Positions 15,986 through 35,493 of a DNA stretch of 64,000 nt are shown here, one piece after another. The notes under the pieces were generated by a model that did no database searches, had not been told where the DNA came from, and saw nothing but the letters and a program-made list of their open reading frames with translations. The DNA is from Elusimicrobiota bacterium (lineage in GTDB: Bacteria > Elusimicrobiota > Elusimicrobia > UBA1565), in assembly GCA_043819795.1 (NCBI GenBank), contig JBDREN010000049.1:2379-66378 (forward strand), given 5' to 3'. How positions within the stretch are numbered: position 1 is the first letter of the stretch; every line of letters begins with the position of its first letter. The position numbers were made by a program, and so were the translations under genes.

Positions 15986-16280
15986 AATCGGATCGCCGGG
16001 GATCGTGTCGCCTGCGCGCTCCCCGCGGTCCGCGCCGCCGCGCAGTGGTCAAGACAGGACCCGTTCCCGGCTCGTTGGAATTCCCGCTGCGCGGCAGACC
16101 CATGGGATTTCCGGGCGCGTCAATCGCCCCGGAACCGCCAATGGAAAGCGCGGCACCGCGGGACGATGAGACAGGTGCGGCTTGATACGATGACGCAGGA
16201 GATGCCGGCTCCCGCGCTTCGCAAGGGGTTTTTCAGCACCCTGCTGGCGGGCCGGAGAATTCGGGCGCCGGCCGTGCGGC

Positions 16281-17759
16281 TCAGAGATAGGGGGAGAGCA
16301 GCCGGACGGCGGCGTCCCTGAGCCTCGCGGCGCGATTGCGCAGCATAAGATCCGCGAGTTTGAGCTCCCTCGCGGAGCGGCGTTTGCGGGCCGCGATCCG
16401 CTCCAGCGCGGCGGCCAGGCCCGGGCTGTAGCATTCCAGGTTGAATTCGAAGTTCAGAGCCAGGCTCCTGGGGTCCCAGTTCCCCGATCCGAGAAGGGCC
16501 CAGGACGAATCAACGAGCATCAGCTTGCTGTGGTCGAACGGAGGCGGCGAAAGCCATATCCTGCACCCGCGGGCGAGCAGCTCCGGCAGCAGGGGGTAGG
16601 AGGCCCACTGGACCAGCCGCAGGTTGGAGCGCTCCGGCAGGAGGATGTCCACGCGTACGCCGGCCATGGCCGCCACGCACAGCGCCGTGACCAGCGCCTC
16701 GTCCGGGAGGAAATAGGGCGTCACGACGATCACCGAGCGCCCGGCGCACTCGATCGCGCCCAAGAGCGTCCAGCGCAGCTTGTCGAAATCCTCGTCGGGG
16801 CCGTCGGCGATGCCGCGGGCGAGGACTCCCCCGGCCTCGGCGAGCGGCGGGAACCAGGCCTCTTCCGAAAGACGCTCGCCCGTGCAGAAGAACCAGTCCT
16901 CCGCGAAGACCTCCTGCAGGTCGGCCACCACCGGCCCCTCGACCCGGAAGTGCAGGTCTCGGATCCGCGGGGGCTCCGCGTCCCGCCCTTGGTAGGACTG
17001 GCCGATGTTCAGGCCGCCCGTGAAGCCGGTCCGTCCGTCGGCGACCAGGATCTTCCTGTGGCTGCGCAGGTTCACGTAGGGCATGCCCCACGGGATCATC
17101 GTGGGCATGAAATGCGCGACCCGCACGCCGGCGCGGCGGAGCGAGGACGTGATGGGAGGGACCGAGTAGCGCGCGCCCACGTCGTCTATCAGGACGCGGA
17201 CCTGGACCCCGCGCCGCACGGCGCGGCCGAGGGCCTCCCGGAACGTCGCCCCGACCGCGTCGTTGGAGAAGATATAGGAAGCCAGCGATACGGACCGTTC
17301 GGCCTCGTCGACGGCGCGCAACATCGCCGGGTAGGCCTGCGAGCCGTCTTGAAGCGGGAGTATCCGGTTTCCCGCGAGCAGCGGCCTTCGCGTCACATTG
17401 TCCATCACCCTCGCCAACGGAAGAAGGTGGCGCCGATCGGGCCCCAGGACGGCTCGCAGCGCTTCCGTCCCGGCGGCCTCGCGGCGGCGCGCGAACCGGA
17501 GCTTGCTCGCCCCCTTGCGCAGGCGCACGGCCTTCCTGCGGATCCGGTTGATGCCGAGCAGCATATAGACGCCGGCTCCGATCACCGGGGCGAGCCAGAT
17601 GAGGCCGATCCATCCCGTCGCCGCCCTGGAGTCCCGTTTGTTGACGAGGACGTGGACGGACGCCGCCACGGTGATCGCGAGGGTGAGGGCCCCGGCGATG
17701 TGGGGCTGAAACTGCCGGATCGTCTCGAGAATCGTCGCCGCGATGAGACCTGAGTTCAT
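16281..17759 (-). CDS. cls: Cardiolipin synthase (PLD superfamily)
   Basis: Two N-terminal TM helices and two HKD motifs (HRKILVADGRTGFTGGLNIG and HSKLMLVDSSWALLGSGNWDPRS). Confidence 0.9.
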   Translation of the reverse strand: MNSGLIAATILETIRQFQPHIAGALTLAITVAASVHVLVNKRDSRAATGWIGLIWLAPVIGAGVYMLLGINRIRRKAVRLRKGASKLRFARRREAAGTEALRAVLGPDRRHLLPLARVMDNVTRRPLLAGNRILPLQDGSQAYPAMLRAVDEAERSVSLASYIFSNDAVGATFREALGRAVRRGVQVRVLIDDVGARYSVPPITSSLRRAGVRVAHFMPTMIPWGMPYVNLRSHRKILVADGRTGFTGGLNIGQSYQGRDAEPPRIRDLHFRVEGPVVADLQEVFAEDWFFCTGERLSEEAWFPPLAEAGGVLARGIADGPDEDFDKLRWTLLGAIECAGRSVIVVTPYFLPDEALVTALCVAAMAGVRVDILLPERSNLRLVQWASYPLLPELLARGCRIWLSPPPFDHSKLMLVDSSWALLGSGNWDPRSLALNFEFNLECYSPGLAAALERIAARKRRSARELKLADLMLRNRAARLRDAAVRLLSPYL

Positions 17760-18830: not shown

Positions 18831-19823
18831 TCACTTCCATCTGGCGCGCCAGCCCCGGGCGTCTATATGGACGAAGGGCGGGTGGCCGGGGTTTCTACGG
18901 TAGCGCGCCAGGCCGCCCGTCAGGCGGCTCAAGACCGGCTTCCCGAACAGCTCGTCGACCAGGCGGTGAAGGACGTCCGCGTCCCTCCAGTCGGACCTGC
19001 CGTCTCCGTTGAGATCGTCCATGTCGCCGTCTTTCGGCGACTGGTCGACGAAGATGTCCGCGCCCCCGCCCCAGAGATGCCTGCTGTGCTTGACCCGGCC
19101 GATCGCGCGGTTGTGGTGGGGGGTGCGGTAGCCGCTCATGATGTGGAAGGTGTCGGCCCGGTGCCCCTTTTTGTTGAGGGCTTCGAGCAGGAGCTCGAGC
19201 TTGAGCAATAGACGCTCCCGCAGCACGAGGTACTTGGGGAAACCGGACTTCTGCTTGCAGAGGAACTGTCCGAGCGAGAAGTGCGGCGAGACGGGGCGCG
19301 CCATGTTCTCGGCGGTCACCTCCACGAAGCCCGCGGGGGGCTTGTAGATGGGAAGGCCCCGGAAAGGCTTGGCCGGATACTCCCCGATGCGGTATCCGTT
19401 CAGGACTCCTTTGCTGACGCGTGAGTAAGGGACCATCACGAAGGCGTTCAGGAGGATGTCGTCCCCGGACTTCACGCGCGACACGCGGAGCGCGAAGGAG
19501 CCGTGCGTCGATGGGGCCTTCCAGACCCACTTCCGCGGCTCTTTGCGGACCACGTCCCCGGCCTCCGCCCACAGCGTGAACTCCTGCGCGTCCTCCCCGT
19601 CCAGCGCCTCGACGTCCAGACTCTCTCCCGGCAGCACGAATACCGCGAAGACCCGGTATGGGACCGGCTCGCCTTTGACCCTGACCACGAACCCGGCCCG
19701 GCCCGGATCGAAGGGGGGATCGGAGCCGGCCGAGATCGGCGCAGGACGAGACAGGGATGCGAGGACGCATACGACAGGCAGAAGCGGAAGCAGCCGCGAG
19801 CTTCGGCCGAGGCGGATGCTCAT
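18831..19823 (-). CDS. Peptidase M15A / DUF882 (MepK/YcbK-like cell-wall peptidase), exported
   Basis: Signal peptide. C-terminal M15-type block HIMSGYRTPHHNRAIGRVKHSRHLWGGGADIF...FVHIDARG. The 4-nt overlap (19820-19823) with the upstream L,D-transpeptidase gene indicates one operon. Confidence 0.8.
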   Translation of the reverse strand: MSIRLGRSSRLLPLLPVVCVLASLSRPAPISAGSDPPFDPGRAGFVVRVKGEPVPYRVFAVFVLPGESLDVEALDGEDAQEFTLWAEAGDVVRKEPRKWVWKAPSTHGSFALRVSRVKSGDDILLNAFVMVPYSRVSKGVLNGYRIGEYPAKPFRGLPIYKPPAGFVEVTAENMARPVSPHFSLGQFLCKQKSGFPKYLVLRERLLLKLELLLEALNKKGHRADTFHIMSGYRTPHHNRAIGRVKHSRHLWGGGADIFVDQSPKDGDMDDLNGDGRSDWRDADVLHRLVDELFGKPVLSRLTGGLARYRRNPGHPPFVHIDARGWRARWK

Positions 19824-21556
19824 GGCTCAGGCGGCGTCGAGAGTAGAGCCAGCGCGACGGCTTCGTCCCGTTCGTAGACGTCGCGCCGGAAGTGGACCGC
19901 GCCATCGCCTTCGGCCCACGCGGTCCAGTAGAGGAGATGGACCGGTATGGGCCGTGGAAGCCGCACCGTCCGCTCCTCGCCGGCCTCGATGGCGGCAAGG
20001 ATGCTCTCGCGGCTCCACGCGGGATCGTCCTCGAGCGCCCGCACGGCGAGCTCCAGGGGTCTCTCCACGCGGATGCAGCCCGAGCTGAACGTGCGCGTCC
20101 CTTCGGCGAACAGGCGTCTATCCGGCGTGTCGTGCAGGTAGACGCTGAACTCGTTCGGGAGCATGAATTTGATGCGGCCGAGGGCGTTGAGCGGGCCGGG
20201 CTCCTGCACGAGGCGGTACGGGAAGTCCTCCTCATTGAGGGAGGCCCAGCCGACGGAGTCCGGGTCCACCTCCACCGTCTCGCCCCCGCGGCTTTCATAG
20301 ACCCGCATCCGTTGGCGCTTCAGATAGCGAGGATCCCTTTGGATCTCCGGGAGCTTGTCCGCCACCGCGATGCTGCGCGGGACGTTCCATGAGGGGTTGA
20401 GCACCAGGTACGTCATCCTGTCGCTGAACATGGGAGTGCGCCGGTAGGCGCGGCCGATGATGACGCTCATCCTCAGCGCCTCACGGCCGTCTTCCTGCAT
20501 GCGCAGGCTGAAATCCGGGACATTGACCAGGATGTGCCGGTCCCCGAAGTCCTGCGGCATCCATCGCCACCGCTCCATGTTCACGACGATCTGCTGCGCC
20601 CGGCGCGCCGGGGATACGTTGATCTCCGCGATCGTCCGGGCGCCCGCCACCCCGTCCGCGTCGAGCCCGTGGCGCGCTTGGAAGCGGCGGACCGCCCGTT
20701 CCAGCTCTTCGTCATACAGTTCCGGCGCGGCCGTGCCGGTCCGCTCGATGTCGCCCAAGACCGCCAGCCTGCGGCGCAGCAGAGCGACCGCCGCCCGGCG
20801 GGCGCCGGGGCGCAGGACGGGCGCGGAGGGGATGGCCGTCCACTTGGTCCGCGAGCCCAGACTCCGGTAATGCGCCAGAGCCTCGCGCAGCTTCCAGTAT
20901 CCCGGATCCCTCGGCAGAAGGCCTCTAAGGGCGGCGGAGACCTCCCCCGACGCGAGCGCGTCCTCGAGCACCCTCTCGACGTCGCCTTCCCGCCCGTGGA
21001 CATGCCACTCGGCGTCCAGGGACTGCGGGTTCAGCCGGCCGGACAGGAGGTGCGACGCGTAGACCAGAAAGGCGTCCGTCATGAGGATGTCCGCTTCGGC
21101 CGCCATGTCCCGTGCCCGAGGGGATGCCGGGAGATTTTCGGGCGGCAAAGCCTCGATGGCGCTCAGGTGGTAGTCCTCGGGACGCAGCCCTTCCCGATCC
21201 GCATCGCGCAGGGCCGCGAGCAGCCGGCGTCCGCCCGCATTGAGGCCTCCCTCGGCGACCCACGCCGGCAGGAAGCCTCGCCGCTCATAGAAGGCGGGCA
21301 GGGCAAGCCTGGCGTGCACGCGCTCGTGCCGGGAGGATATCCTCGCGGGCAGGCCCGCGGTCTCGATACGGCGCCTTATCCCCTCGGCGACGCGCTGCTC
21401 CCGATCCGCCTGGGCGGCGGCCGGGACGCGGATCGCGCAGAGCGCGCCGAGGCACAGGCCGGCGAGGATGGCGCGGCGGCGCCCCATCTTCGAGGAGATC
21501 CCGGGGCAGGGAAGACGCCGCCGCCCGTCGGCGGGGTCACTGCGCGCGGCGGGCAT
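19820..21556 (-). CDS. L,D-transpeptidase, YcbB/LdtD-like (PG-binding + YkuD domains)
   Basis: PG_binding_1-like LERAVRRFQARHGLDADGVAGARTIAEINV. YkuD catalytic block VYLHDTPDRRLFAEGTRTFSSGCIRVERP. An alternative start at 21487 gives the signal peptide MGRRRAILAGLCLGALCAIRVPAAAQA. Confidence 0.85.
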   Translation of the reverse strand: MPAARSDPADGRRRLPCPGISSKMGRRRAILAGLCLGALCAIRVPAAAQADREQRVAEGIRRRIETAGLPARISSRHERVHARLALPAFYERRGFLPAWVAEGGLNAGGRRLLAALRDADREGLRPEDYHLSAIEALPPENLPASPRARDMAAEADILMTDAFLVYASHLLSGRLNPQSLDAEWHVHGREGDVERVLEDALASGEVSAALRGLLPRDPGYWKLREALAHYRSLGSRTKWTAIPSAPVLRPGARRAAVALLRRRLAVLGDIERTGTAAPELYDEELERAVRRFQARHGLDADGVAGARTIAEINVSPARRAQQIVVNMERWRWMPQDFGDRHILVNVPDFSLRMQEDGREALRMSVIIGRAYRRTPMFSDRMTYLVLNPSWNVPRSIAVADKLPEIQRDPRYLKRQRMRVYESRGGETVEVDPDSVGWASLNEEDFPYRLVQEPGPLNALGRIKFMLPNEFSVYLHDTPDRRLFAEGTRTFSSGCIRVERPLELAVRALEDDPAWSRESILAAIEAGEERTVRLPRPIPVHLLYWTAWAEGDGAVHFRRDVYERDEAVALALLSTPPEP

Positions 21557-22144: not shown

Positions 22145-22687
22145 ATGGAAGCCGTAAACGCTTTGTTCGCCGGGCCGTGGGGACCCCTCATCATCTTCGC
22201 GCTCCGCATCTGCGACGTGTCGATCGCGACCATCCGGATGCTATTGATGATGCGGAGCGCGAAAATGATCGTGCCGATCCTCGCGTTCTTCGAGATCCTC
22301 ATCTGGATATTCGCGATAGGCAGCGCCATCAAGAACCTCAACAGCCCCTGGCATATCCTGGGCTACGCCGGAGGCTTCGCCACAGGGACCGTCGTGGGGA
22401 TGTGGATCGAGGAGAAGCTCGCCTACGGCTATGCCACGGCCCGCTTCATCTCGAAGAAATCCGGAGCCGAGCTGGGCGCGATCCTCAGGGAGAGGGGGTT
22501 CGGCGTCACCGAGCTCTCGGGCCGGGGCCGCGAGGGCGAGGTGGCCGTCTTCGTCAGCGTTGTCCGGCGCAAAGAGCTTGAGGACCTCGTAGCGGCGGCT
22601 CAGCAGGCGGACCCGGACATCTTCGTGACGGTCGAGGAAACGCGGTCGATCGCCCGGGGATGGCTGTTTCCCAGGAGACGGAAGTAA
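22145..22687 (+). CDS. UPF0316/DUF2179 family membrane protein
   Basis: Three N-terminal TM helices (LIIFALRICDVSIATIRMLLMMR..) followed by a soluble DUF2179-like domain (GFGVTELSGRGREGEVAVFVSVVRRKE). Confidence 0.7.
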   Translation: MEAVNALFAGPWGPLIIFALRICDVSIATIRMLLMMRSAKMIVPILAFFEILIWIFAIGSAIKNLNSPWHILGYAGGFATGTVVGMWIEEKLAYGYATARFISKKSGAELGAILRERGFGVTELSGRGREGEVAVFVSVVRRKELEDLVAAAQQADPDIFVTVEETRSIARGWLFPRRRK

Positions 22688-22893: not shown

Positions 22894-24000
22894 ATGACGG
22901 ACCCCGGCCAGCCGGCGCAGGGCGACCCCGCCGCCTTCAACCCCCTCGACGGGGCCGAGGGGGATCCTTCCGTCTTCTGGGAGGAGGTCGCCGGACTCCG
23001 GAGAGTGGCCGCGGATCGCGCCGAGCCGCTGGAGCGCCGCCTCGAAGCCTTCGAGGACATTATGGAGTCCGAGGTCGGGGACACGTCGTTCTTGCGCGCC
23101 CGCAAGCTGGAGAGCGAGTTCTCCCTGCGCCAGATCTACCTCAAGTTCGAGGGGGGCAACCCCACCGGCACGCAGAAGGACCGCATCGCTTTCTCCCAGG
23201 TGCTCGACGCCATGCGCCGGGGCTTCGACGCCATCACCCTCGCCACCTGCGGGAACTACGGCGTCGCGGCCGCCCTCGCCGCCTCCATGTGCCGGCTGCG
23301 CTGCATCGTGTACGTCCCGGAGACCTACCGCCCGAGCCGGCTGGGCGAGATCCAGGATCTCGGCGCGGAGGTCGTGCGCGCCGGCGGGGACTACGAGGCG
23401 GCGGTGGCCCTTTCCAGCGAGCGCGCCGCCAAGGAGGAGCTCTACGACGCCAATCCAGGAGGCCAGAACACCCTGCTCCAGCTGCGGGCCTACGGGGAGA
23501 TCTCCTATGAGATCTACGACGAGCTGCGCGACGCTCCCGCCGCCGTGGCCGTGCCCGTGTCCAACGGCACCACCCTCGCCGGGATCTACAAGGGCTTCCT
23601 GAGCCTTTACCGCCGGGGCAAGACCTCCCGGATGCCCAGGCTCGTGGCCGGCTCGGCTTTCAACAAGAATCCCATCGTCCTGGCCTTCCGGAGGGGCAGG
23701 CCCGTCTGCGAGGACCTTCCTCCCCATGTGGTCCGGGAGTCCCGGGTCAACGAGCCGCTGATCAACTGGCATTCCAGCGACGGCGACCACGCGCTGGAAG
23801 CCCTCAGGAAGAGCCATGGCTGGGCGCACAACGCCACGGACCGGATGATGACCGACTTCTGCCGCCTGCTCCGCGAGAAGGAGGGCTACCACGTGCTGCC
23901 CGCCTCCACCGCGGGCCTCATCGCCCTGCTGGAGAGGAACAAAAGCGAGCGGCTCCCGAGCGACCGCTACGTGGCCGTCCTGACGGGTAAGAAGGCATGA
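22894..24000 (+). CDS. PLP-dependent enzyme, threonine-synthase-like (fold type II, PALP)
   Basis: LKFEGGNPTGTQKDRIAF (PLP-lysine motif), ATCGNYG, and the VSNGTTLAG glycine-rich phosphate loop. Confidence 0.75.
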   Translation: MTDPGQPAQGDPAAFNPLDGAEGDPSVFWEEVAGLRRVAADRAEPLERRLEAFEDIMESEVGDTSFLRARKLESEFSLRQIYLKFEGGNPTGTQKDRIAFSQVLDAMRRGFDAITLATCGNYGVAAALAASMCRLRCIVYVPETYRPSRLGEIQDLGAEVVRAGGDYEAAVALSSERAAKEELYDANPGGQNTLLQLRAYGEISYEIYDELRDAPAAVAVPVSNGTTLAGIYKGFLSLYRRGKTSRMPRLVAGSAFNKNPIVLAFRRGRPVCEDLPPHVVRESRVNEPLINWHSSDGDHALEALRKSHGWAHNATDRMMTDFCRLLREKEGYHVLPASTAGLIALLERNKSERLPSDRYVAVLTGKKA

Positions 24001-25091
24001 CCGGGTTTCCCGAGGGCCGCGCGGTCGTCTACTGCCAGGGAGCCTTCGCCACCCCCAACGGGAAGACGGCGCACGGGCTGGTCCGCTTCACGCGGCGCTA
24101 CGAGGTCCTCTCCGTCGTGGACGGTTCCTGCGCGGGGCGGGACGCCGGCGTGGTGCTGGACGGCAGGCATCGGGGCATCCCCGTCCTGGCGACCCTGGAG
24201 GAGGCCCTGAAGCACGGCAAAGACGCCGGCCGGCCGGCCACCCACCTGGTGGTCGGGCTCGCGCCCGACGGAGGCCGCCTGCCCCCTTCCGCCAAAGATG
24301 ACATGGCGGCGGCCATCCGGGCCGGGCTGCACGTGGACAGCGGGCTGCACGACTTCCTGAGCGAGGACCCGCTGCTGAGCCGGCTGGCCGCGGAGCGGGG
24401 GGTGCGGATCCGCGACGTGCGCAAGCCCCCGTCGCGCAACGAGCTGAGCTCCTTCAGCGGCCGCATCCGCCAAGTCCGCGCCCCGCGGCTCGCGGTGCTC
24501 GGCACGGACTCGGCGCTCGGCAAACGCACGACAGCCGTGCTCCTGACGGAGGCCCTCCGGGGGCTCGGCTGCAACGCGGAGTTCATCGGGACGGGGCAGA
24601 CGTCGTGGCTGCAGGGGGCGCGCCACTGCATCGTGCTGGATTCCATCATCAACGATTTCGTCGCGGGGGAGATCGAGCGCGTCGTCTGCCTCGCGGACGA
24701 GCGCGAGAACCCCGACGTGATCGTCATCGAGGGCCAGGGCAGCCTGCTCAACCCCGCCTATCCGGGGGGCTTCGAGATACTGGCCGCCGCGCGTCCGGAG
24801 CTGATCGTCCTGCAGCACGCCCCGGCCAGGACGCACTACGACGGCTTCCCGGACTGTCCGATGGACCCGCTCGACCGGCAGATCCAGGCGGTCGAGCTCA
24901 TCGGCAGGAGGCCGCCGGCGGCGATCACGCTCAACCACGAGGGATTGGACGAAGGCCGGATCCCGGCCGTCTGCGAGGATATCTCCCGGAGGACCGGCCT
25001 CCCCGTGTTCGACGTCCTGCTCCAGGGCGCGCAGCCGCTCGCCCGGAGGATCCTCTCCGAAGCCAAGTCGCTATGCCGGCCGTCCGCATGA
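23997..25091 (+). CDS. DUF1611 domain protein (DgcN-like)
   Basis: ATGA overlap with the upstream gene. N-terminal AVVYCQGAFATPNGKTAHGLVR, P-loop-like VLGTDSALGKRTTAVLL, IVIEGQGSLLNPAYPG. Confidence 0.75.
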   Translation: MTGFPEGRAVVYCQGAFATPNGKTAHGLVRFTRRYEVLSVVDGSCAGRDAGVVLDGRHRGIPVLATLEEALKHGKDAGRPATHLVVGLAPDGGRLPPSAKDDMAAAIRAGLHVDSGLHDFLSEDPLLSRLAAERGVRIRDVRKPPSRNELSSFSGRIRQVRAPRLAVLGTDSALGKRTTAVLLTEALRGLGCNAEFIGTGQTSWLQGARHCIVLDSIINDFVAGEIERVVCLADERENPDVIVIEGQGSLLNPAYPGGFEILAAARPELIVLQHAPARTHYDGFPDCPMDPLDRQIQAVELIGRRPPAAITLNHEGLDEGRIPAVCEDISRRTGLPVFDVLLQGAQPLARRILSEAKSLCRPSA

Positions 25092-25110
25092 CGGGGCAGG
25101 AGGTTTTAAG

Positions 25111-27492
25111 ATGACTTCTAGGGACGCGGCCGGCGACGCCCCTAAGCCGCGCCGCAGGGCCGGCGCCGAGCCTTCGAGCCATCTCGCCGCCCTGCTCTGT
25201 CTCGACGAGCTCCGGGTGGGCCCCCCCAGGCTCGAGCCCCGGAGACTGACGGTGCCCTATGCCGCGACCCGCGACGGCCGCGCCGAGAGCCTGGAGCTCG
25301 TCTACAAGTACGACGAGGACGTCTTCGACCCCGAGGACGAAGGCCACCGCAACCTGGCTTCCATGATCGGCGCCCAGGTGGCGCTGAACTACGGCCTGTT
25401 CTGCCGGGGCATCCGCTTCGACGGGACCTACTCGGAGGCGGACCGCCGGTTCATCGTGGAGATGGCCGAGAACACGGCGCGGGAGATCCTGGTAAAGAAG
25501 CTGCTCCAGCCGAACCCGTTCCTCGTGCCGGACTTCGCCCCGCTGCGGCCGGGGAAGCTCGATACGTACTCCCAGGCCCGAATCCGGTTCTCCTCCCCCG
25601 TGACGGGGGACCGTCAGGTGCCCTGGCAATCCTGGGAGACGAGCCACGAGCGGCTCGCGGTGCTCTCCAGCGGCGGCAAGGACAGCCTCCTGAGCTTCGG
25701 CCTGCTCCAGGAGCTCGGCCGGGAGACGCATCCCATCTTCATCAACGAGTCCGGCCGGCACTGGTTCACCGCGTTCAACGCCTTCAAGCGGTTCAAGGAG
25801 GATGTGCCCCTCACGGCCAAGGTCTGGACCAACGCGGACCAGATGTTCTCCTGGATGCTGCGGCGGCTGCCGTTCATCCGCCGGGACTTCTCCGAGGTGC
25901 GCTCCGACGACTACCCGATCCGTCTGTGGACGGTGGCCGTATTCCTGTTCGGCGCCCTTCCGCTCTTGCGCCGGCGCGGCATCGGCCGCCTCGTCATCGG
26001 CGACGAGTACGACACGACGCGCCGCAGGCGGCATCTCGGCATCCGGCACTACGACGGCCTTTTCGACCAGAGCCGCTACTTCGACAATTATGTGTCGCGC
26101 TACTTCCTGGGCAAGGGCTGGGCCGTGAGCCAGTTCTCCCTGCTGCGCCCCTTGTCCGAGCTTCTGGTCCAGAAGACGCTGGTCGAGCGCTATCCCGATC
26201 TCCAGAGGCTGCAGGTCTCCTGCCACGCCGCCCACATGCGGGAGGGGGCGGCGCGGCCCTGCGGCGGCTGCGAGAAGTGCCGCCGCGTGGTCGGGATGCT
26301 CCTGGCCGCGGACGCGGACCCCTCGCGCTGCGGCTACACCCCGGCGCAGGTCGAAAGCTGTCTCTCCCAGATGGGCAGCAAGGGCGTGCATCAGGAGGAA
26401 GCCTGCTGGCGGCACGTGCTGTTCCTGCTGCGATCCAAGGGGCTCCTCCGCCGGGAAGGGCCCCTGATCGCGCGGGCGGAGGAGAAGCCCGAGGCGCTCA
26501 GCCTGCGCTTCGACGGCGAACGCGCGCCCCTGGACGCCGTCCCCGTGGACCTGCGCCGCCCCCTCTACCGCATCCTCCTGGGCCACGCCGCGGGCGCGAT
26601 GAGGCGGGTGGAGCGGCGCTGGGCGCCCTTCGACCTGCTGGCCGACCGCGGTCTCGCGAAGACCTACCCCTTCGAGTTCGAGACCAAGCGTCAGCCGGGG
26701 GAAGGCGCTCCCCGCAGCTATCTTTACGGCGAGCTGACCTGGCCCGAGATGACGGAGAGGCTGCGGAAGGTCGACCTCGCCCTCCTCCCCGTGGGCGCGA
26801 TCGAGCAGCACGGGCCGCACCTGCCGCTCGACACCGACGCATTCGACGCCGCCTACCTGGCGAGCCGGGTCGCCGAGGCGTGCGGCAAGCCCCAGCCCCT
26901 GGTCCTTCCGGGCATCCCATACGGCGTCTCGTATCACCACGACGAATTCAAGGGCACCGTGAGCATCCGGAACGGCACGCTCTCCGGCCTCGTCTACGAC
27001 GTCGGCATGAGCCTGGCCCGCAACGGCATCCGGAAGCTCGTCATCATCAACGGCCACGGCGGGAACAGCCCGGCGCTCAACTACGCCGCGCAGATGATCA
27101 ACCGCGACGCCCGCATCTTCGTCTGCGTCGATACCGGCGAGACCAGCGACGTGGACATCAACGAGCTGATCGAGACGCCCAACGACGTGCACGCCGGCGA
27201 GATCGAGACCAGCACGGCCCTGGCGGTCCGGCCGGAGCTGGTCCGGATGCGCCTGGCCAAGCGCTCCGTCCCGAGGTTCTCCAGCCGCTATCTCGACTTC
27301 AGCTCGAAGCGCAGCATCTCCTGGCACGCCCACACCAAAAGGATCTCCGAGAGCGGCGTGATGGGCGACCCCACGCGCGCGAGCCGGGAGAAGGGCCGGC
27401 GTATCTGGGAGATCATGGTCGCCCACCTGGTCAACCTGGTGGAGGAGCTGAAATCCTTGAGCCTCGAAGAGATATGCCAGCGCCGCTACTGA
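25111..27492 (+). CDS. Fusion protein: PP-loop ATP pyrophosphatase-like domain + creatininase-family amidohydrolase domain
   Basis: SGGKDS PP-loop at 25669-25686 (LAVLSSGGKDSLLSFG) and a CGGCEKC motif in the N-terminal half. The C-terminal ~250 aa carry creatininase blocks LPVGAIEQHGPHLPLDTD, INGHGGN, HAGEIETS. Confidence 0.75.
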   Translation: MTSRDAAGDAPKPRRRAGAEPSSHLAALLCLDELRVGPPRLEPRRLTVPYAATRDGRAESLELVYKYDEDVFDPEDEGHRNLASMIGAQVALNYGLFCRGIRFDGTYSEADRRFIVEMAENTAREILVKKLLQPNPFLVPDFAPLRPGKLDTYSQARIRFSSPVTGDRQVPWQSWETSHERLAVLSSGGKDSLLSFGLLQELGRETHPIFINESGRHWFTAFNAFKRFKEDVPLTAKVWTNADQMFSWMLRRLPFIRRDFSEVRSDDYPIRLWTVAVFLFGALPLLRRRGIGRLVIGDEYDTTRRRRHLGIRHYDGLFDQSRYFDNYVSRYFLGKGWAVSQFSLLRPLSELLVQKTLVERYPDLQRLQVSCHAAHMREGAARPCGGCEKCRRVVGMLLAADADPSRCGYTPAQVESCLSQMGSKGVHQEEACWRHVLFLLRSKGLLRREGPLIARAEEKPEALSLRFDGERAPLDAVPVDLRRPLYRILLGHAAGAMRRVERRWAPFDLLADRGLAKTYPFEFETKRQPGEGAPRSYLYGELTWPEMTERLRKVDLALLPVGAIEQHGPHLPLDTDAFDAAYLASRVAEACGKPQPLVLPGIPYGVSYHHDEFKGTVSIRNGTLSGLVYDVGMSLARNGIRKLVIINGHGGNSPALNYAAQMINRDARIFVCVDTGETSDVDINELIETPNDVHAGEIETSTALAVRPELVRMRLAKRSVPRFSSRYLDFSSKRSISWHAHTKRISESGVMGDPTRASREKGRRIWEIMVAHLVNLVEELKSLSLEEICQRRY

Positions 27493-27508: not shown

Positions 27509-28579
27509 ATGAGGATCGCCCGCTGCGAGGCCTGGCTCGTGGAGATGCCCCTGTCCGAGCCCTACGAGATCGCCTATGAGAAGGTCGACAAGGCTCGAAA
27601 CGTGTTCCTGCGCGTCGAGACCACCCGGGGGACCTCGGGCTTCGGCTGCGCGGCGCCGGACCCGAACATCACCGGCGAGACCGTCGAGCAGGCGCTGGCC
27701 GCTCTGCGGGACGCGGCCCCGCCCGTCCTGAAAGGGCTCGATCCCCTGCGCCCGGTCATGGTCATGGAGCGGTTCAAGGTGTCTCTTCAGGCCTTCCCCT
27801 CCGCTCGCGCTGCGATCGACATGGCGCTCCACGACATCTTGGGAAAGGAAGCGGGGCTCCCCCTGTGGAAGCTCCTGGGCGGGTTCCGTTCATCCTTCCG
27901 GACCACCGTCACGCTGGGGATCATGGGCGTCCGCGAGTCCGTCGATAGGTCCCTGGAGATGGCGGCCCGCGGCTTCAAGGCGCTGAAGATCAAGGGGGGG
28001 CTGGACGCGGAGCAGGACGTCGAGCGGCTGGTCCGTATCCGGGAAGCGGTGGGGCCCAGGATCGAGCTGCGATTCGACGCCAACCAGGGCTATACGGCCG
28101 AGCAGACGGCGCGGTTCCTCCGCCGGACGCGCCCGGTCAAGCTGGAGCTCATCGAGCAGCCCACGCCGAGCAAGGACCTCGACCAGCTGGAGCGCGCGAC
28201 CCGGATGGCCTCGATCCCCGTGATGGCCGACGAGAGCCTCATCAACCTCCGGGACGCCTTCCGCCTCGTCCGCAGGGGCATCGCGGACATGGTGAACATC
28301 AAGCTGATGAAGTGCGGCGGCATCACGGAGGCTCTCAACATCAACTCGGTGGCCAAGGCCGGGGGCTACGAGGCGATGGTCGGCTGCATGGACGAGTCGG
28401 CCCTTGCGATCGCGGCCGGCCTGGCTTTCGCCCTGTGCCGGCCGAACGTCGCCTATGCGGACCTGGACGGACACCTGGGCCTGGCGGGCGATCCGTTCGA
28501 GGGGTCGGTCGTGCTGAAGGAAGGAGTGCTCTATCCCACCGGGGCTCCGGGCCTGGGCTGCAAGGCGCCGCGGTCATGA
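27509..28579 (+). CDS. Enolase-superfamily dipeptide epimerase / N-acyl-amino-acid racemase-like enzyme
   Basis: MR/MLE-type pattern: ALKIKGG, RFDANQGYT, ELIEQP, MADESL, NIKLMKCGGI, GCMDES (catalytic Lys pair and Asp/Glu/Asp metal ligands). Confidence 0.85.
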   Translation: MRIARCEAWLVEMPLSEPYEIAYEKVDKARNVFLRVETTRGTSGFGCAAPDPNITGETVEQALAALRDAAPPVLKGLDPLRPVMVMERFKVSLQAFPSARAAIDMALHDILGKEAGLPLWKLLGGFRSSFRTTVTLGIMGVRESVDRSLEMAARGFKALKIKGGLDAEQDVERLVRIREAVGPRIELRFDANQGYTAEQTARFLRRTRPVKLELIEQPTPSKDLDQLERATRMASIPVMADESLINLRDAFRLVRRGIADMVNIKLMKCGGITEALNINSVAKAGGYEAMVGCMDESALAIAAGLAFALCRPNVAYADLDGHLGLAGDPFEGSVVLKEGVLYPTGAPGLGCKAPRS

Positions 28580-30941: not shown

Positions 30942-32255
30942 ATGCCCACGCGCACGTTGGCCGTTGCCGCCGTCCGGCAGCTGATCGAAGCCGATCCTAG
31001 ACGGGCCGCGTTCTTCCTAGAGGGCCTCGACATCAATGATGCGGGAGCCATGCTGGCCGCCTTGCCGCCGTCCTCCGCGCGCCGCCTCTTCAAGCACCTC
31101 CAGCCCGCCTTCGCGGGCAGGATGCTGAGCGCCTTGCGGCCGGACAGTGTCGCCGCGGTCCTGGAGAGTGTCGAGCCCGAAGCCGCGGTCGATGCCTTCC
31201 GCTCCATGGAGAACGGGGTCCGTCAGACGGTGCTGGGCGCTCTTTCCGAGCAGAGGAAGATCGCGCTTCAGGAGCTGTTGGCCTATCCGGAAGGGAGCGC
31301 GGGCAGGCTCATGAGCACCGACGTCGTGTCCTTCATCCAGGGGACCAAGGTGCGCGAAGTCATCCAGAGGCTGCGCGCGGCCGTCAGGAAGGGCTCGTCG
31401 CCGACGTACGCCTACGTCGTCGATGAGGACCGGAAGCTCAAGGGGGTCCTGGTGATGCGGGACCTGCTCTTCGCGGATTCGGGCGCGCCGATCGAGAGCG
31501 TGATGAGCCCGGGGGTCAAGGCCGTATCCGGCTTCACGGACCGCGAGGATTTGGTCCAGCTGGCCAAGGAGAGACGCTACCTCTCGGTGCCGGTGGTGGA
31601 CGCGGACGGACGGATCCTCGGCTCGGTGCGCATGGCCGAGCTCCTGGAGTCCAGCCAGGAGGAGGCCGGCGAGGACATCCAGCTCATGTTCGGCGGGAGC
31701 GCGGACGAGAGGCCGTTCTCTCCGGTCTCGTTCAAGCTGGCGCGAAGGCTGCCGTGGCTCCATGTGAACCTCGTTACGGCCTTCATGGCCGGGGCGGTGG
31801 TGGCCCTCTTCGAGGGACTGATCAGCCAGCTGGCCGTGCTCGCGGTGTTCCTGCCGATCATCGCGGGGCAGGGGGGCAACGCCGGGACCCAGACGCTGTC
31901 CGTGGTCCTGCGCGGCCTCATCATGCGGGAGATCCGGCCCCGGGACGCTTGGCGCGCGATCGTCAGGGAGTCGGGGGTGGGCGCGATCACCGGCCTGGTC
32001 ACGGGCGTGGTGACCGCAGGCGTGGCGTGGCTGTGGAAGGGGAACCTGTTTCTGGGGCTCGTCGTGGGGCTCGCCATGATCGTGAACCTGGTCGCGGCGG
32101 GGGCCGCGGGCGCGGTCATACCGCTGGCCATGAAGAGGCTCGGCTTCGACCCGGCCCAATCCTCGGGCATCATCCTTACCACGGTGACGGACGTCGTCGG
32201 TTTCTTCGCCTTCCTGGGCTTCGCGTTCCTGTTCCGGAGCCGGCTCATCGGATGA
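30942..32255 (+). CDS. mgtE: Magnesium transporter MgtE
   Basis: N-domain, tandem CBS region (PVVDADGRILGSVRMAELL) and TM domain with IAGQGGNAGTQTLSVVLRGL. Confidence 0.9.
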   Translation: MPTRTLAVAAVRQLIEADPRRAAFFLEGLDINDAGAMLAALPPSSARRLFKHLQPAFAGRMLSALRPDSVAAVLESVEPEAAVDAFRSMENGVRQTVLGALSEQRKIALQELLAYPEGSAGRLMSTDVVSFIQGTKVREVIQRLRAAVRKGSSPTYAYVVDEDRKLKGVLVMRDLLFADSGAPIESVMSPGVKAVSGFTDREDLVQLAKERRYLSVPVVDADGRILGSVRMAELLESSQEEAGEDIQLMFGGSADERPFSPVSFKLARRLPWLHVNLVTAFMAGAVVALFEGLISQLAVLAVFLPIIAGQGGNAGTQTLSVVLRGLIMREIRPRDAWRAIVRESGVGAITGLVTGVVTAGVAWLWKGNLFLGLVVGLAMIVNLVAAGAAGAVIPLAMKRLGFDPAQSSGIILTTVTDVVGFFAFLGFAFLFRSRLIG

Positions 32256-32268
32256 GCGCGCGCCGCGA

Positions 32269-35200
32269 TCACCGGAAGGCGAAGTTGAGCAGGATGTCGA
32301 TGACGTACGTGCCGTCGCTCGAGTCGCGGCCCTCCAGGCTCCAGCGGGGCGAGAGCGTGTAACGCGCCTCGACGCGCCTCTGCCCCGCGGGTCCCAGCGT
32401 CTGGCCGTAGGTCACGAAGAGCCGCTTCGTGAGATACTTCCCGGCGGTCACGTCCGCTTCCCGCGCCCCCCTGGCACGCACCTGGAAGGTGTCGATCTTG
32501 GCCTTGCGGATGACGTGCCGATGGAGGCTCCGGGAGACGTACTCGGTGAACAGCCGGGCCGCTTCCTCCCGCTTCTTCTTGGAGTCGCTCTCCGATCCCA
32601 GATCGTAGACGGGCTTTCCCAGGGTGAGCATGGAGATGATGTCGCGCTGCTCCATGGGGGGCTCCGAGCTCAGAGACACGACGGGCCGGCTGGCCGTGCC
32701 GCTCAGGTCAAGGAAGACCTTGGCCCGCGTGCCCTGGTCCACGTAGACGGCTCGGACGTCGATGGTGGGATCCGGGGGAGCCGCGCCCGAGAACTCGGCG
32801 CGCCCTTCCCGGATATCGAACGGCCGGCCGTAGATGACGTAGCGGCCCTGCAGGGTCCGCACCGCGCCCAGGATCCGGGCGGGCTCGCTTTGCTCTTTCT
32901 TCACGAGGAGCTCGCCTTTGGTCTCTATGTCGCTCGCGCCCTGCCGGAACCAGGCGTTCCTGTCGAAGCGCACGCGCAGGTCGAGCTGCAGCGGGGACAT
33001 CTCCGCCCGCGCGGAAGCCTTCAACTCCCGGGCCCCGCGCGCGGGGGCGCGCGGGGAGGCCGGAGCCTCGGGCTTCTTGGGGGGCGGCATGAATTCGGCC
33101 TCGGAGAGCGCGATCGTCCCTCCCACCCGGAGGGCTTTCCAGGCTCCTTTCAGGCCGACGTCGAGGTCCGCCTCTCCCGAGAGGCCGGCCTCGGAGCGGA
33201 AAGGAAGGTTCCGCGCCGAGACGAGTAGATCAGGCCCGTCCAGCCCGGCCTCGCCGGACAGCGTCAGGGTCCCGCGCGGCTCCTCTATCTTCCGTTCGAA
33301 TATCCCGGAGAGCCTTCGGGCGACGCGCCGCAGCAGGCCGGCCAGCGGCGGCTCCTGTCCCAGAGGGACCGCCGATCCCCGCAACGACAGGGCCGGTCGT
33401 CCTTCTCCAACGGCGCTTAGGGTCACGCCGGTCAGCGTTATCCCGGCCGCGGGGATGCGGACGGCTTCCGCGCGCAGAGCCGCCTCGCCGTCGCAGAACG
33501 GCGCGCCGGCGCGCCGGCCGACGCGCATCCGCCCCGAGAGCCGGCTTGACTCCGGAACGATCGCGTCGGACCAAGCGGCCAGGGGAGCGGGATCGAACCC
33601 GTCCGCTTCCAGGTCCACGAGGAAGTCGGGGGTCTCGCCCCCGCCGAAAGCCAGCGGCGCCGTGCCGCGGAGGGTCAGCGTTCCCCCTCCGGATTCCCAG
33701 AGCAGAGTCTCGACGCGCAGGGTCTTCCCGTCGGAGGAGAGCCTGCCAGAAATGTCGCCCAGCGGCCGTCTCCGCCAATGCCCGTCTCGGAGCCGGAAGG
33801 CCGCCTTCCCCGACGGCGCGGACAGCGCGCCTTTCAGCTCGATCGCGGCGTCCACCTCTCCGTCCAATGGGACCGTGCGGACGCCTATGTGCCGCAGAAA
33901 GGCGGGGTCGAAGCCGGACGCGGTCATCCGGAGGCGCTCGAAGATGGTCCCCCTCGCGGCCGCGTCGACCGCGAGCCGCGCCTTCCCATCCGAGACCGCG
34001 AGGCTCGAGACCGACCAGGCGCCGGACCCGATCTCGGTCTTGAACGGCGTCGAGCTGCGGTATACCCGCCCCGCGTATGCTTGAAGCTCTTTCCAACGCA
34101 CGGTCCAGACGCCGCCGGCGAGCGCGCCGCTCCCTCTCGCCGCCAAAGTACCGCCGGAGACCGCCGCCTCCCAATCGGTCGTGTGCGAGGAGGTCGAGCC
34201 TGAGAGGGATACCCGCGCCTCATCCAGGGAGACCGCCCCGGCGCGCAGTCCCGCCGCGACCACCCGCACGTCCATGACGGCCGGCCGCAAGCCGCGGCCC
34301 GCGGCGGTGAATGCCGCGCTGGAGAGGCGGATGGTTTCGTGGTCCAGGCCTTCCATCCGGCCTTCGGCCCGCCATCGCAAGGCCGGCCACGTTCCGGAGA
34401 CCGATCCCGCGGCCCGCATCCCCGCCGCCCAGGTCCCGGCCAGGCGTCGGATCGCGGCCGCGTCCGCCTCCAGCGTCCAGGTCGCCCGAACGACGCCGGA
34501 CTCGAAGGAGCCTAGGGAGGAGGCGGAGGCTCCCGCCGTGGAGAGCTCCACGCGCCAGTCCGTTCTTCCCTCCGCCGTATGTCCCTTCGCCTGGAGGCGG
34601 AGGCCTCCCTCCTCTTGCAGATCGAACAGGCCCGCGGATATTCCTCCCGGACCGGGACCGCCGCCCTTTGCCTGGAGGTCGCCGGAGACGGGCGCGATCC
34701 GGAAAGGCAGGGCGATCATCAAGTCGGCCGGGTCCAGCCGGGCCAGGTTCCCCTGGAAATGCCAGGCGTTCTCCTTGTCCGAGCGGGCGGCGACAGAGAG
34801 CGACGGTTTCCGTCGCTTCTTGATCTCGGCGTTGGCCTTCCAGCCTTCCGCATCGCGGGTCCACCGGAAGGACCCCTCGATGTCGCGGTCCCAGCGCAGG
34901 GTCGTGTTCACGGAGAGAGGGGCAAAACCGACCGTGCCTGTGGCATTCATCTCCCGCCCCGCCATGCGCCACGTGGCTGATTCGAGGTGAACGCGCTCTT
35001 CGTCCACGCGCAGGCGGGCGTCCAGACGTTCGATCCGGCCGGGCAGGATCGCGGAAGGGGGCTCCCATATGATGGCCCCCTCCTGGATGCTGGCTCGGAG
35101 GAGGGATATGATCCAGGCCGGCTTCTTGCGCGCGGAAGAATCCGGCAGGGATGTTTCCCCGGGCGGTTTGAGCCGCAGGGTCGGCCGGGTCAGCGCCAGC

Positions 35201-35493
35201 GATGTCACGATCACGCGCTTGCGCAACAAAGACTTCGCGTCTACCTTCATGGCCAAGCGGGGAACCGCGAGGACGCCTGCGGGCCAGCTCAGCTCGACGT
35301 CGTGGAGCACGAGGCCTTCGGCGGGGCTTCCCGATACGCCGCCGACTTCCACGCGCACGCCCGTCCGGGCCTCGAGCCAGGAGGCCGCTTTTTCGACGAA
35401 CGGTCCCGGAATCCTGAGCGCCGCGGTCGCCGGCCCGGCGACGGCCGCCATCGCCGCCGCGAGGAGCGCAAAGTGAAGGGGCTTGCGGCCCAT
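32269..35493 (-). CDS. tamB: Translocation and assembly module subunit TamB-like (DUF490)
   Basis: ATG 35493 shares its A with the tamA stop (TGATG). Signal-anchor MGRKPLHFALLAAAMAAVAGPATA and C-terminal DUF490-type block LFVTYGQTLGPAGQRRVEARYTLSPRWSLEGRDSSDGTYVIDILLNFAF. The upstream part of the 1314-aa ORF overlaps tamA and is not coding. Confidence 0.8.
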   Translation of the reverse strand: MGRKPLHFALLAAAMAAVAGPATAALRIPGPFVEKAASWLEARTGVRVEVGGVSGSPAEGLVLHDVELSWPAGVLAVPRLAMKVDAKSLLRKRVIVTSLALTRPTLRLKPPGETSLPDSSARKKPAWIISLLRASIQEGAIIWEPPSAILPGRIERLDARLRVDEERVHLESATWRMAGREMNATGTVGFAPLSVNTTLRWDRDIEGSFRWTRDAEGWKANAEIKKRRKPSLSVAARSDKENAWHFQGNLARLDPADLMIALPFRIAPVSGDLQAKGGGPGPGGISAGLFDLQEEGGLRLQAKGHTAEGRTDWRVELSTAGASASSLGSFESGVVRATWTLEADAAAIRRLAGTWAAGMRAAGSVSGTWPALRWRAEGRMEGLDHETIRLSSAAFTAAGRGLRPAVMDVRVVAAGLRAGAVSLDEARVSLSGSTSSHTTDWEAAVSGGTLAARGSGALAGGVWTVRWKELQAYAGRVYRSSTPFKTEIGSGAWSVSSLAVSDGKARLAVDAAARGTIFERLRMTASGFDPAFLRHIGVRTVPLDGEVDAAIELKGALSAPSGKAAFRLRDGHWRRRPLGDISGRLSSDGKTLRVETLLWESGGGTLTLRGTAPLAFGGGETPDFLVDLEADGFDPAPLAAWSDAIVPESSRLSGRMRVGRRAGAPFCDGEAALRAEAVRIPAAGITLTGVTLSAVGEGRPALSLRGSAVPLGQEPPLAGLLRRVARRLSGIFERKIEEPRGTLTLSGEAGLDGPDLLVSARNLPFRSEAGLSGEADLDVGLKGAWKALRVGGTIALSEAEFMPPPKKPEAPASPRAPARGARELKASARAEMSPLQLDLRVRFDRNAWFRQGASDIETKGELLVKKEQSEPARILGAVRTLQGRYVIYGRPFDIREGRAEFSGAAPPDPTIDVRAVYVDQGTRAKVFLDLSGTASRPVVSLSSEPPMEQRDIISMLTLGKPVYDLGSESDSKKKREEAARLFTEYVSRSLHRHVIRKAKIDTFQVRARGAREADVTAGKYLTKRLFVTYGQTLGPAGQRRVEARYTLSPRWSLEGRDSSDGTYVIDILLNFAFR

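Follow-up and report, generated by a model that had tools for sequence, protein, structure and literature searches.

What is the role of a protein that joins a PP-loop ATP pyrophosphatase-like module to a creatininase-family hydrolase in one polypeptide? The question is raised by a gene on a 64,000-nucleotide stretch of DNA from an Elusimicrobiota bacterium (contig JBDREN010000049.1; the whole stretch is referred to as the window), whose 793-aa product had been singled out from the DNA sequence as an unusual fusion (the original prediction). The fusion is probably a real enzyme with two functions, belonging to a conserved, uncharacterized pathway that acts on an amino acid or a dipeptide. The gene and its parts are as follows.

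25111–27492, + strand: fusion gene, N-terminal QueC/MurL-like PP-loop module and C-terminal creatininase-family hydrolase, 793 aa (stop-free frame, ribosome-binding site, profile of GC content at third codon positions, GC3)
25111–26700, + strand: N-terminal module (N-module), aa 1–530, with a β/α subdomain (~25–135), a PP-loop ATPase core (~178–400) and a helical/β subdomain (~400–520)
25669–25686, + strand: PP-loop SGGKDS, aa 187–192 (conserved in alignments A2 and A3)
26218–26280, + strand: putative zinc site S-C371-H ... C384-G-G-C387-E-K-C390 (cysteines conserved in bacterial and archaeal members)
26731–27441, + strand: creatininase-family domain with a predicted dinuclear metal site, aa 541–777 (Pfam PF02633)

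The start codon (ATG) of the fusion gene is preceded, 8 nt upstream, by GGAGG. In a genome of ~68% GC, the GC3 is 0.88–0.98 in each 150-nt block of the gene, the domain junction at 26.46–26.76 kb included. The five motifs named in the original prediction were all found where it had placed them, i.e., SGGKDS, CGGCEKC (aa 384–390, nt 26260–26280), EQHGPHLPLDTD (aa 565–576, nt 26803–26838), NGHGGN (aa 647–652, nt 27049–27066), and HAGEIETS (aa 694–701, nt 27190–27213), and its two domain calls, a QueC-like PP-loop domain with a cysteine cluster and a complete creatininase-family domain, hold as well. The NCBI protein identical to the product is entitled 'MAG: creatininase family protein [Elusimicrobiota bacterium]'. 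Two overlapping open reading frames (ORFs) were rejected. An 831-aa antisense ORF (24931–27426, − strand) covers almost the whole fusion gene; its GC contents by codon position, 0.92, 0.50 and 0.66, show the pattern of a non-coding shadow frame of a high-GC genome. A 528-aa ORF in frame +2 likewise has a non-coding GC-position pattern.

A survey of 86 non-redundant loci, based on ORFs and BLAST, detected a fused ORF of ~790 aa in 83 of them, in independent assemblies and across phyla, and the best 120 database clusters from a collection of 5.8 billion proteins are full-length (772–836 aa, 60–65% identity, query coverage ≥96%). An erroneous junction of two genes by misassembly or a frameshift, which had been named along with the original prediction as one finding that would overturn it, is excluded by this conservation, and the coding GC3 runs on without interruption across the domain junction. 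What could be cited in favor of an artefact are split versions of the gene on a few contigs: N-module and creatininase are separate ORFs in locus L023, and the P0124 contig (JGI 3300042731) codes for PALP, an 855-aa fusion of DUF1611 and N-module, a separate 267-aa creatininase, and then MR_MLE. The architecture, originally described as unfamiliar, is genuine and without a characterized example in the literature we searched, but it is not rare: this is how a very widespread gene is normally built. Nor had it escaped recognition altogether, since automatic annotation by JGI, which labels many of the clusters 'creatinine amidohydrolase.../7-cyano-7-deazaguanine synthase', already names both halves, and the fusion is one packaging of a conserved operon. 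Both halves belong to known superfamilies, and their combination has been seen before by automated annotation.

A profile of the N-module collected 628 representatives at 50% clustering, and in a scan of one genome per species, at least 555 genomes encode a relative. The best 80 of these genomes are all metagenome-assembled genomes (MAGs), affiliated with Ignavibacteria, Acidobacteriota/Holophagae, Gemmatimonadota, Latescibacterota, Desulfobacterales and other 'Deltaproteobacteria', Calditrichota, Zixibacteria, Aminicenantes, Phycisphaerae, Bacteroidota, Eisenbacteria, and others. The hosts are mostly peptide- or necromass-degrading lineages, including the peptide-fermenting Thermococcus and Thermofilum. 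Searches of the literature retrieved no publication on the fusion or on the combination of DUF1611 with creatininase, and nothing relevant on the creatininase family and YitT/DUF2179; the whole operon described below appears to be undescribed in the literature searched.

The AlphaFold model of the N-module, computed from 16 orthologues, has a mean predicted local distance difference test score (pLDDT) of 82 and a predicted template modeling score (pTM) of 0.86. It places SGGKDS after the first strand of a Rossmann-like α/β core, as in the PP-loop ATP pyrophosphatase superfamily. S187, G189 and S192 are ≥90% conserved in alignment A3, which represents the divergent family down to 17–30% identity and includes archaeal members, and G188 and S192 are invariant in alignment A2. 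In both bacteria and archaea, the cysteines of the pattern C371-x12-C384-x2-C387-x2-C390 are invariant (C371, C384, C387) or ≥90% conserved (C390); the pattern, a putative zinc site, resembles the C-terminal Cys4 site of QueC. Based on the model, the position of the PP-loop and the near-invariant cysteines, the reading as a PP-loop domain with a QueC-type cysteine cluster appears to hold at the level of the fold. QueC is the top fold match, and Cap9 and QatC are further structural neighbors, at identities of 14–18%. None of the Pfam models matches aa 1–530, and the QueC models of Pfam and NCBIfam gave no match even at E values up to 1. Sequence searches of the PDB with the N-module, as a single sequence or as a profile, returned marginal PP-loop matches only, and no MurL structure. 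The N-module family has no model in the Pfam copy searched, no solved structure, and no characterized member.

The one characterized family to which the N-module shows detectable sequence similarity is MurL. The match of the window protein to the MurL model NF041275 is weak (25 bits, E 5e-6, aa 339–394 aligned, as compared to a cut-off of 700); the best match within the family, by a divergent relative, reaches 38 bits (E 7e-10) and spans MurL positions 130–354. Out of 27 diverse family members, 12 matched MurL, in colinear alignments that run from PP-loop to cysteine motif; the only other NCBIfam match among the same 27 was a single weak one, to PRK13795. A search that started from the intermediate protein P0252 yielded six relatives, none of which bears the name MurL or any other. 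As judged from these alignments, the N-module is a remote homologue of MurL and not a member of that family; overall, it is a QueC-like PP-loop ATPase remotely related to MurL. MurL works with ATP and Mg2+, yields AMP, and turns an L-glutamate at the C-terminus into D-glutamate in one direction only; its discoverers reported no recognizable domains and an unknown mechanism (PMC5808125, PMC8788868). The original prediction spoke of an amide- or nitrile-forming domain; by sequence, the closest characterized relative is instead an ATP-dependent peptide epimerase.

The C-terminal domain (aa 541–777) matches PF02633 over profile positions 2–238 of 238 (E 8.6e-73, 245 bits, gathering score 31.3). 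The AlphaFold2 model of the full-length fusion is compact, with a pLDDT of 84 and a pTM of 0.83, and Foldseek aligns it with the creatininase of Pseudomonas putida at a TM score of ~0.78 and 30% identity. In the alignment to 1q3k/3a6h, E565, H567, D576, H649 and E699 correspond to the ligands E34, H36, D45, H120 and E183 of the dinuclear metal site (P. putida numbering), and H694 to the catalytic H178; all six vary little or not at all among 39 orthologues. The GHYEN motif of creatininase (Y121-E122), however, reads GHGGN in the fusion protein (G650-G651). All NCBIfam scores are below the respective cut-offs: 151 versus 172 for MftE (TIGR03964), 112 versus 235 for creatininase (TIGR04448), 86 versus 245 for IolN, and 32 versus 180 for ArfB (NF033501). 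Since the metal ligands are kept, Y121/E122 are replaced by two glycines and none of the cut-offs is reached, the domain is predicted to be a catalytically intact metal amidohydrolase of the creatininase fold, but not a creatinine hydrolase. The creatininase-family call of the original prediction is thus right as to the domain, which is complete, and does not extend to the activity that gave the family its name.

Mycofactocin, riboflavin/F420 and inositol genes are absent from the vicinity of the fusion gene. Radical-SAM or mycofactocin genes did not turn up either in the operon or in the 86 related loci, as assessed from gene calls and clustering of recurrent ORFs. An MftE-like role on a ribosomally synthesized and post-translationally modified peptide was dropped because no radical-SAM enzyme turned up; small precursor ORFs were not specifically sought.

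The data on both modules also bear on the second form of the artefact explanation, namely, that an ordinary QueC and an ordinary creatinine amidohydrolase are encoded here. QueC is a single-domain protein of ~220 aa which occurs in the context of queD, queE and queF, whereas the N-module comprises 530 aa, lacks a match to the QueC models and has PALP, DUF1611 and MR_MLE proteins as neighbors; queuosine genes are absent from among the operon neighbors, as are CBASS and Qat genes. The C-terminal domain, in turn, falls far short of the creatininase cut-off and is devoid of the Y121/E122 pair. The comparative data refute both forms of this explanation, the chances of which we consider negligible. 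A role in anti-phage defense of the QatC or Cap9 kind was rejected as well, since PADLOC returned no meaningful match (none for the fusion, DUF1611 and MR_MLE proteins; only a weak one to DrmMI, E 0.0035, for the PALP protein) and the neighbors are metabolic.

The fusion gene is the third of four tightly packed genes on the + strand; the other three are as follows.

22894–24000, + strand: fold-type II pyridoxal phosphate (PLP) enzyme, ThrC-like, 368 aa (Pfam PALP, E 9e-54)
23997–25091, + strand: DUF1611 protein, DgcN-like, with a BioD-like P-loop, 364 aa (Pfam DUF1611_N and DUF1611)
27509–28579, + strand: enolase-superfamily epimerase of the dipeptide-epimerase type, 356 aa (Pfam MR_MLE_N and MR_MLE_C)

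Among the 86 loci, the PLP gene was found in 71, the DUF1611 gene in 69, and the epimerase gene in 60, always in the same order; most of the missing partner genes are accounted for by contig ends. The gene order is kept in ~60–70 of the 86 loci, in many phyla. The PLP enzyme scores 409 bits (cut-off 266) against PRK06381 'threonine synthase' of NCBIfam, and its nearest solved structures are threonine synthases, albeit at an E value of 4e-26 only. The stop codon of its gene overlaps the start codon of the DUF1611 gene (ATGA). In bacteria, ~55 poorly conserved residues extend the PLP enzyme at its N-terminus (22894–23060 in the window); the archaeal orthologues of 310–330 aa lack this extension. 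In locus L088 (973–1134), a 53-aa ORF overlaps the PALP start in place of the extension. The DUF1611 protein, the orthologues of which conserve GTDSALGKRT, has 2obn, 2g0t and 7xrj as relatives in the PDB and scores 163 bits against the DgcN model of NCBIfam, below its cut-off of 480.

The epimerase has its best PDB relatives among the dipeptide epimerases (3rit, 3jva, 1jpm/1tkk; E 3e-69 to 9e-62). The residues by which dipeptide epimerases are recognized (KxK, Asp/Glu/Asp metal ligands, a second Lys, and the DxD motif) are all present in the sequence, which in the alignment to 3rit/3jva keeps KIK, DANQ, EQP, ADES, NIKLMK and ADLDG (DxD). KIK, DANQ, EQP, ADES and NIKLMKCGG are conserved in 56 operon epimerase orthologues. 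Its score of 170 against the DgcA equivalog is below the cut-off of 400.

The window gave no match to Rfam, neither to a riboswitch nor to any other RNA, and a scan of the window for the sigma-54 promoter consensus performed no better than on shuffled sequence. In 21 related loci (e.g., L057, 2–1390; L058, 2991–4388; L033, 918–2318), a response regulator of the NtrC type, associated with sigma-54, is encoded upstream of the operon. Many of these loci are of the Desulfobacterales type, in the host genomes of which NtrC-type regulators are very common.

The operon occurs in several variants. In addition to the separate ORFs of L023 and the DUF1611 fusion of the P0124 contig, an 825-aa fusion of the N-module to an S-adenosylmethionine-dependent methyltransferase was observed (P0123; L007, 506–2983); the DUF1611-fused and the methyltransferase-fused forms, each found on a single contig, may be due to sequencing error. 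In L002, a methyltransferase gene follows the epimerase gene. L006 codes for DUF1611, a stand-alone N-module and MR_MLE, without creatininase. In five loci (L037, L072, L043, L052, L080), PALP and the fusion occur alone, with neither DUF1611 nor epimerase nearby; a YitT/DUF2179 membrane protein, the one additional gene of these minimal loci, is present in four of the five. In the fusions seen, the joined modules are always neighbors along the operon, i.e., DUF1611 and N-module, or N-module and creatininase.

In a large archaeal branch, genes for PALP, DUF1611 and a stand-alone N-module are followed by a small GCN5-related N-acetyltransferase (GNAT) and major facilitator superfamily (MFS) transporters, or by energy-coupling factor (ECF) transporter genes, and creatininase is lacking. 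Carriers are several cultured Thermococcus, Thermofilum pendens Hrk5 and Infirmifilum, besides MAGs of Desulfurococcales, Thermoplasmata and Bathyarchaeota. The small GNAT and the MFS transporters are located downstream in Thermococcus (L090–L092, 7019–12207), while a 170-aa protein of no assigned family and ECF-transporter genes are found downstream in Thermofilum pendens CP000505 (L093, 5975–9980). The archaeal operon proteins (Thermococcus, Thermofilum, L088) are annotated as hypothetical only; with full-length identities to the window proteins of 47–49% (DUF1611), 38–47% (PALP) and 31–34% (N-module), they are, by sequence, clear orthologues. Considering the split, fused and archaeal forms, the conserved core consists of the PLP enzyme, DUF1611 and the PP-loop module, while creatininase and enolase epimerase are mainly bacterial additions.

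What reaction might such a set of enzymes catalyze? The model we favor, to which we assign a probability of roughly 0.35, is that an N-acyl amino acid or a dipeptide is stereoinverted or modified at the expense of ATP, with the creatininase domain hydrolyzing a cyclic or N-acyl amide. In this model, the DUF1611 protein would N-acylate or otherwise extend an amino acid made or consumed by the PLP enzyme. The PP-loop module would adenylate the α-carboxylate of that amino acid (ATP to AMP and pyrophosphate), and the activation would render the α-carbon epimerizable, as in MurL, probably via a five-membered, oxazolone- or hydantoin-like ring. The fused creatininase domain would then hydrolyze the ring or the N-acyl amide and release the product. 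The net result would be a one-way, ATP-driven stereoinversion or remodeling of an amino-acid residue, while the Mg-dependent enolase epimerase would handle the free dipeptide. Our leading guess as to the substrate is glutamate-like or other D/L-amino acids from peptide or cell-wall turnover. Channeling of a candidate amide or lactam intermediate, which the original prediction took the fusion to imply, is chemically reasonable and would be part of this model, too.

Several lines of evidence led us to favor the stereoinversion model, among them the domain identities, the conserved gene order across phyla, and the fusion of neighbors along that order. The nearest characterized relatives of the three non-PLP partners act in glutamate stereoinversion, namely, MurL for the N-module, DgcN for the DUF1611 protein, and DgcA or Ala-Glu epimerase for the enolase-type enzyme; DgcN is a D-glutamate N-acetyltransferase which works with the enolase-type racemase DgcA. 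The creatininase family offers suitable hydrolytic reactions: creatinine is a five-membered cyclic amide, and MftE and ArfB remove peptidyl or N-acyl groups. Finally, there is a precedent for ring formation and epimerization in the enzyme TcdA, which adenylates the carboxylate of t6A, an N-carbamoyl amino acid, to yield the hydantoin ct6A; the ring epimerizes readily and hydrolyzes to the epimer (PMC5389693). The peptide- and necromass-degrading hosts and the peptide-fermenting archaea would fit a salvage of D/L-amino acids.

Several observations speak against the stereoinversion model. The similarity to MurL is remote and confined to the catalytic core. With an enolase-type epimerase already encoded in the operon, the need for another epimerization at the expense of ATP is not obvious. 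The five loci without DUF1611 and epimerase nearby weaken the N-acylation step, and the absence of creatininase, or the presence of GNAT or methyltransferase instead, in archaea and some bacteria is more reminiscent of variable tailoring of a biosynthetic product. Moreover, a role in stereoinversion leaves the Mg2+ transporter, MscS and Usp neighbors unaccounted for.

Two neighbors of the operon in the window are of types that recur beside it in other loci.

22145–22687, + strand: small membrane protein, DUF5698 and DUF2179, 180 aa (Pfam)
30942–32255, + strand: MgtE Mg2+ transporter, loosely associated (Pfam MgtE, MgtE_N, CBS)

In 23 of the 86 loci, the operon is flanked by membrane proteins with a DUF2179 domain (short DUF5698 type or YitT type), which could transport a substrate or product of the pathway. 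CorA, CNNM or MgtE is encoded within ~7–10 kb of the operon in 13 of the 86 loci, in several phyla and often alongside MscS; MscS channels occur near the operon in seven loci, and further recurrent neighbors are TerC, Usp, MFS and a TrkA-type channel. Since there are few such genes per genome and chance adjacency within ~7–10 kb is estimated to be near 1%, the association with ion and osmotic functions looks real. Mg2+ transporters were recorded in L001, L002, L003, L005, L012, L020, L037, L048, L049, L061, L065 and L086.

Such neighbors would suit a biosynthetic route of the type activate, couple, and deprotect or tailor, leading to a modified dipeptide or an amino-acid amide, e.g., a charge-neutralized compatible solute like N-acetylglutaminylglutamine amide (NAGGN). 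The PP-loop module would join an adenylated carboxylate to an amine or ammonia, the creatininase domain would remove an N-acyl protection, and the enolase enzyme would then epimerize the free dipeptide at its C-terminal residue. In QueC, Cap9 and QatC alike, adenylation is followed by amide formation, and the DxD motif, which in dipeptide epimerases binds the ammonium group of the free N-terminus of the dipeptide, is kept in the operon epimerase. The partner of the N-module varies (creatininase, GNAT, methyltransferase), as tailoring enzymes do, and exporter-like or membrane partners (YitT/DUF2179 at the frequency given above, MFS in Thermococcus) as well as the osmotic and ion-related genes (MscS, CorA/CNNM/MgtE, Usp, TrkA-type channel) are consistent with a solute. 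However, such neighborhood associations are statistical hints only, there is no riboswitch or recognizable regulator to tie the operon to osmotic stress, and there is no known compound to propose as the product. Should the epimerase act after the ligase and before the hydrolase, two activities on one chain would not follow each other directly in the pathway, and in L006 the epimerase is present without any creatininase. On balance, we regard a biosynthetic route of this kind as possible but somewhat unlikely.

Other genes in the surroundings were noted as side observations. A YkuD L,D-transpeptidase (Scaffold, PG_binding_1, YkuD) and a 330-aa protein with weak similarity to Peptidase_M15/DUF882 are encoded upstream of the operon (18831–21556, − strand), and the same pair of YkuD and M15/DUF882-like genes precedes the operon of a different organism (L004, 1543–4247). 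Genes related to glutamate or peptides are located near some operons (L072, 9435–12953, − strand; L037, 2497–4802; L002, 3727–7489; L001, 1–2996), coding for ATP-grasp enzymes of the RimK and D-Ala-D-Ala ligase types, an AstE/AspA-like deacylase, MATCAP, N-formylglutamate amidohydrolase, γ-glutamyltranspeptidase, and a fusion of histone deacetylase and GNAT. The remaining surroundings in the window (13442–17759, 32269–35928, 41763–45680) represent envelope and signaling housekeeping functions, with AsmA-like, phospholipase D-type (cardiolipin-synthase-like) and 1219-aa TamB/YhdP-like proteins, and a 1305-aa hybrid histidine kinase (GAF, PAS, HisKA, REC, Hpt).

A further explanation concerns the source of nitrogen. 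The fusion might represent a new class of amidotransferase, in which the creatininase-fold domain takes ammonia from an amide donor and the PP-loop domain amidates an adenylated carboxylate. The occurrence of the hydrolase as a fused, separate or absent partner mirrors that of the glutaminase partners of the PP-loop synthetases GuaA, NadE and AsnB; the top fold match, QueC, uses ammonia; and the full-length model is compact, as reflected by its pTM. The reactions of the characterized creatininase-family members, to our knowledge, comprise opening of creatinine, cleavage of a peptide, removal of a formyl group, and C–C cleavage, and we know of none that releases ammonia. Neither GNAT nor methyltransferase, which replace the creatininase in some operons, can supply ammonia, and MurL, the sole relative by sequence, needs no nitrogen donor. 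An amidotransferase therefore appears improbable.

Returning to stereoinversion, a more specific proposal would be that the core of PLP enzyme, DUF1611 and PP-loop module performs a new type of ATP-driven stereoinversion or remodeling, in which the MurL-like module makes an azlactone- or hydantoin-type ring and the bacterial creatininase-fold domain opens it stereoselectively. In this detailed form the proposal is unlikely, but if true, it would mean new enzymology for both superfamilies, and the mechanism of MurL would be explained as well. Whichever reaction is catalyzed, knowing it would provide a function for four linked families (the ThrC-like PLP clade, the DUF1611 clade, the PP-loop module, and the creatininase clade) and would probably help to understand how MurL works, an enzyme put forward as a target for narrow-spectrum antibiotics (PMC8788868). 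Either a new route of D/L-amino-acid turnover in degraders of sediment necromass or a small metabolite not seen before could come to light as well. Since cultured Thermococcus carry the core, experimental access to this widespread family is facilitated.

A comparison with known systems places the operon between several of them. MurL, with 447 aa, is close in size to the stand-alone N-modules (460–520 aa), but it is a single-domain protein without creatininase, PLP or DUF1611 partners. In contrast to the MurL setting, the operon includes no MurD2 partner, the N- and C-terminal subdomains of the N-module are without detectable similarity to MurL, and the N-module also occurs in archaea that lack murein. 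As compared to QueC-type enzymes, the N-module carries ~300 more residues, arranged in two flanking subdomains.

The DgcN-DgcA pathway resembles the window operon in that a DUF1611 protein is encoded beside an MR_MLE epimerase, and DgcN is the only characterized relative of the operon DUF1611 protein; however, both window proteins are below the DgcN and DgcA cut-offs, and the operon always adds a ThrC-like PLP enzyme and a PP-loop module, two components foreign to the Dgc pathway. With the dipeptide epimerases YkfB/YcjG, 3RIT and 3JVA, the operon epimerase shares the catalytic residues and the DxD motif. The C-terminal domain shares its full length and all six metal-binding and catalytic residues with the creatininase family (creatinine amidohydrolase, MftE, ArfB, IolN), the best equivalog score being that for MftE (151 bits); unlike creatininase, it has two glycines in place of the creatinine-binding Y121/E122 and is fused to an ATPase module of 530 aa. 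GMP synthetase, glutamine-dependent NAD synthetase, asparagine synthetase B, and AsnO of NAGGN synthesis likewise combine a PP-loop synthetase with an amide hydrolase that is optional across taxa, but whereas the hydrolases of these amidotransferases have a glutamine amidotransferase (GATase), nitrilase or N-terminal nucleophile (Ntn) fold, that of the window protein has the creatininase fold and is located at the C-terminus.

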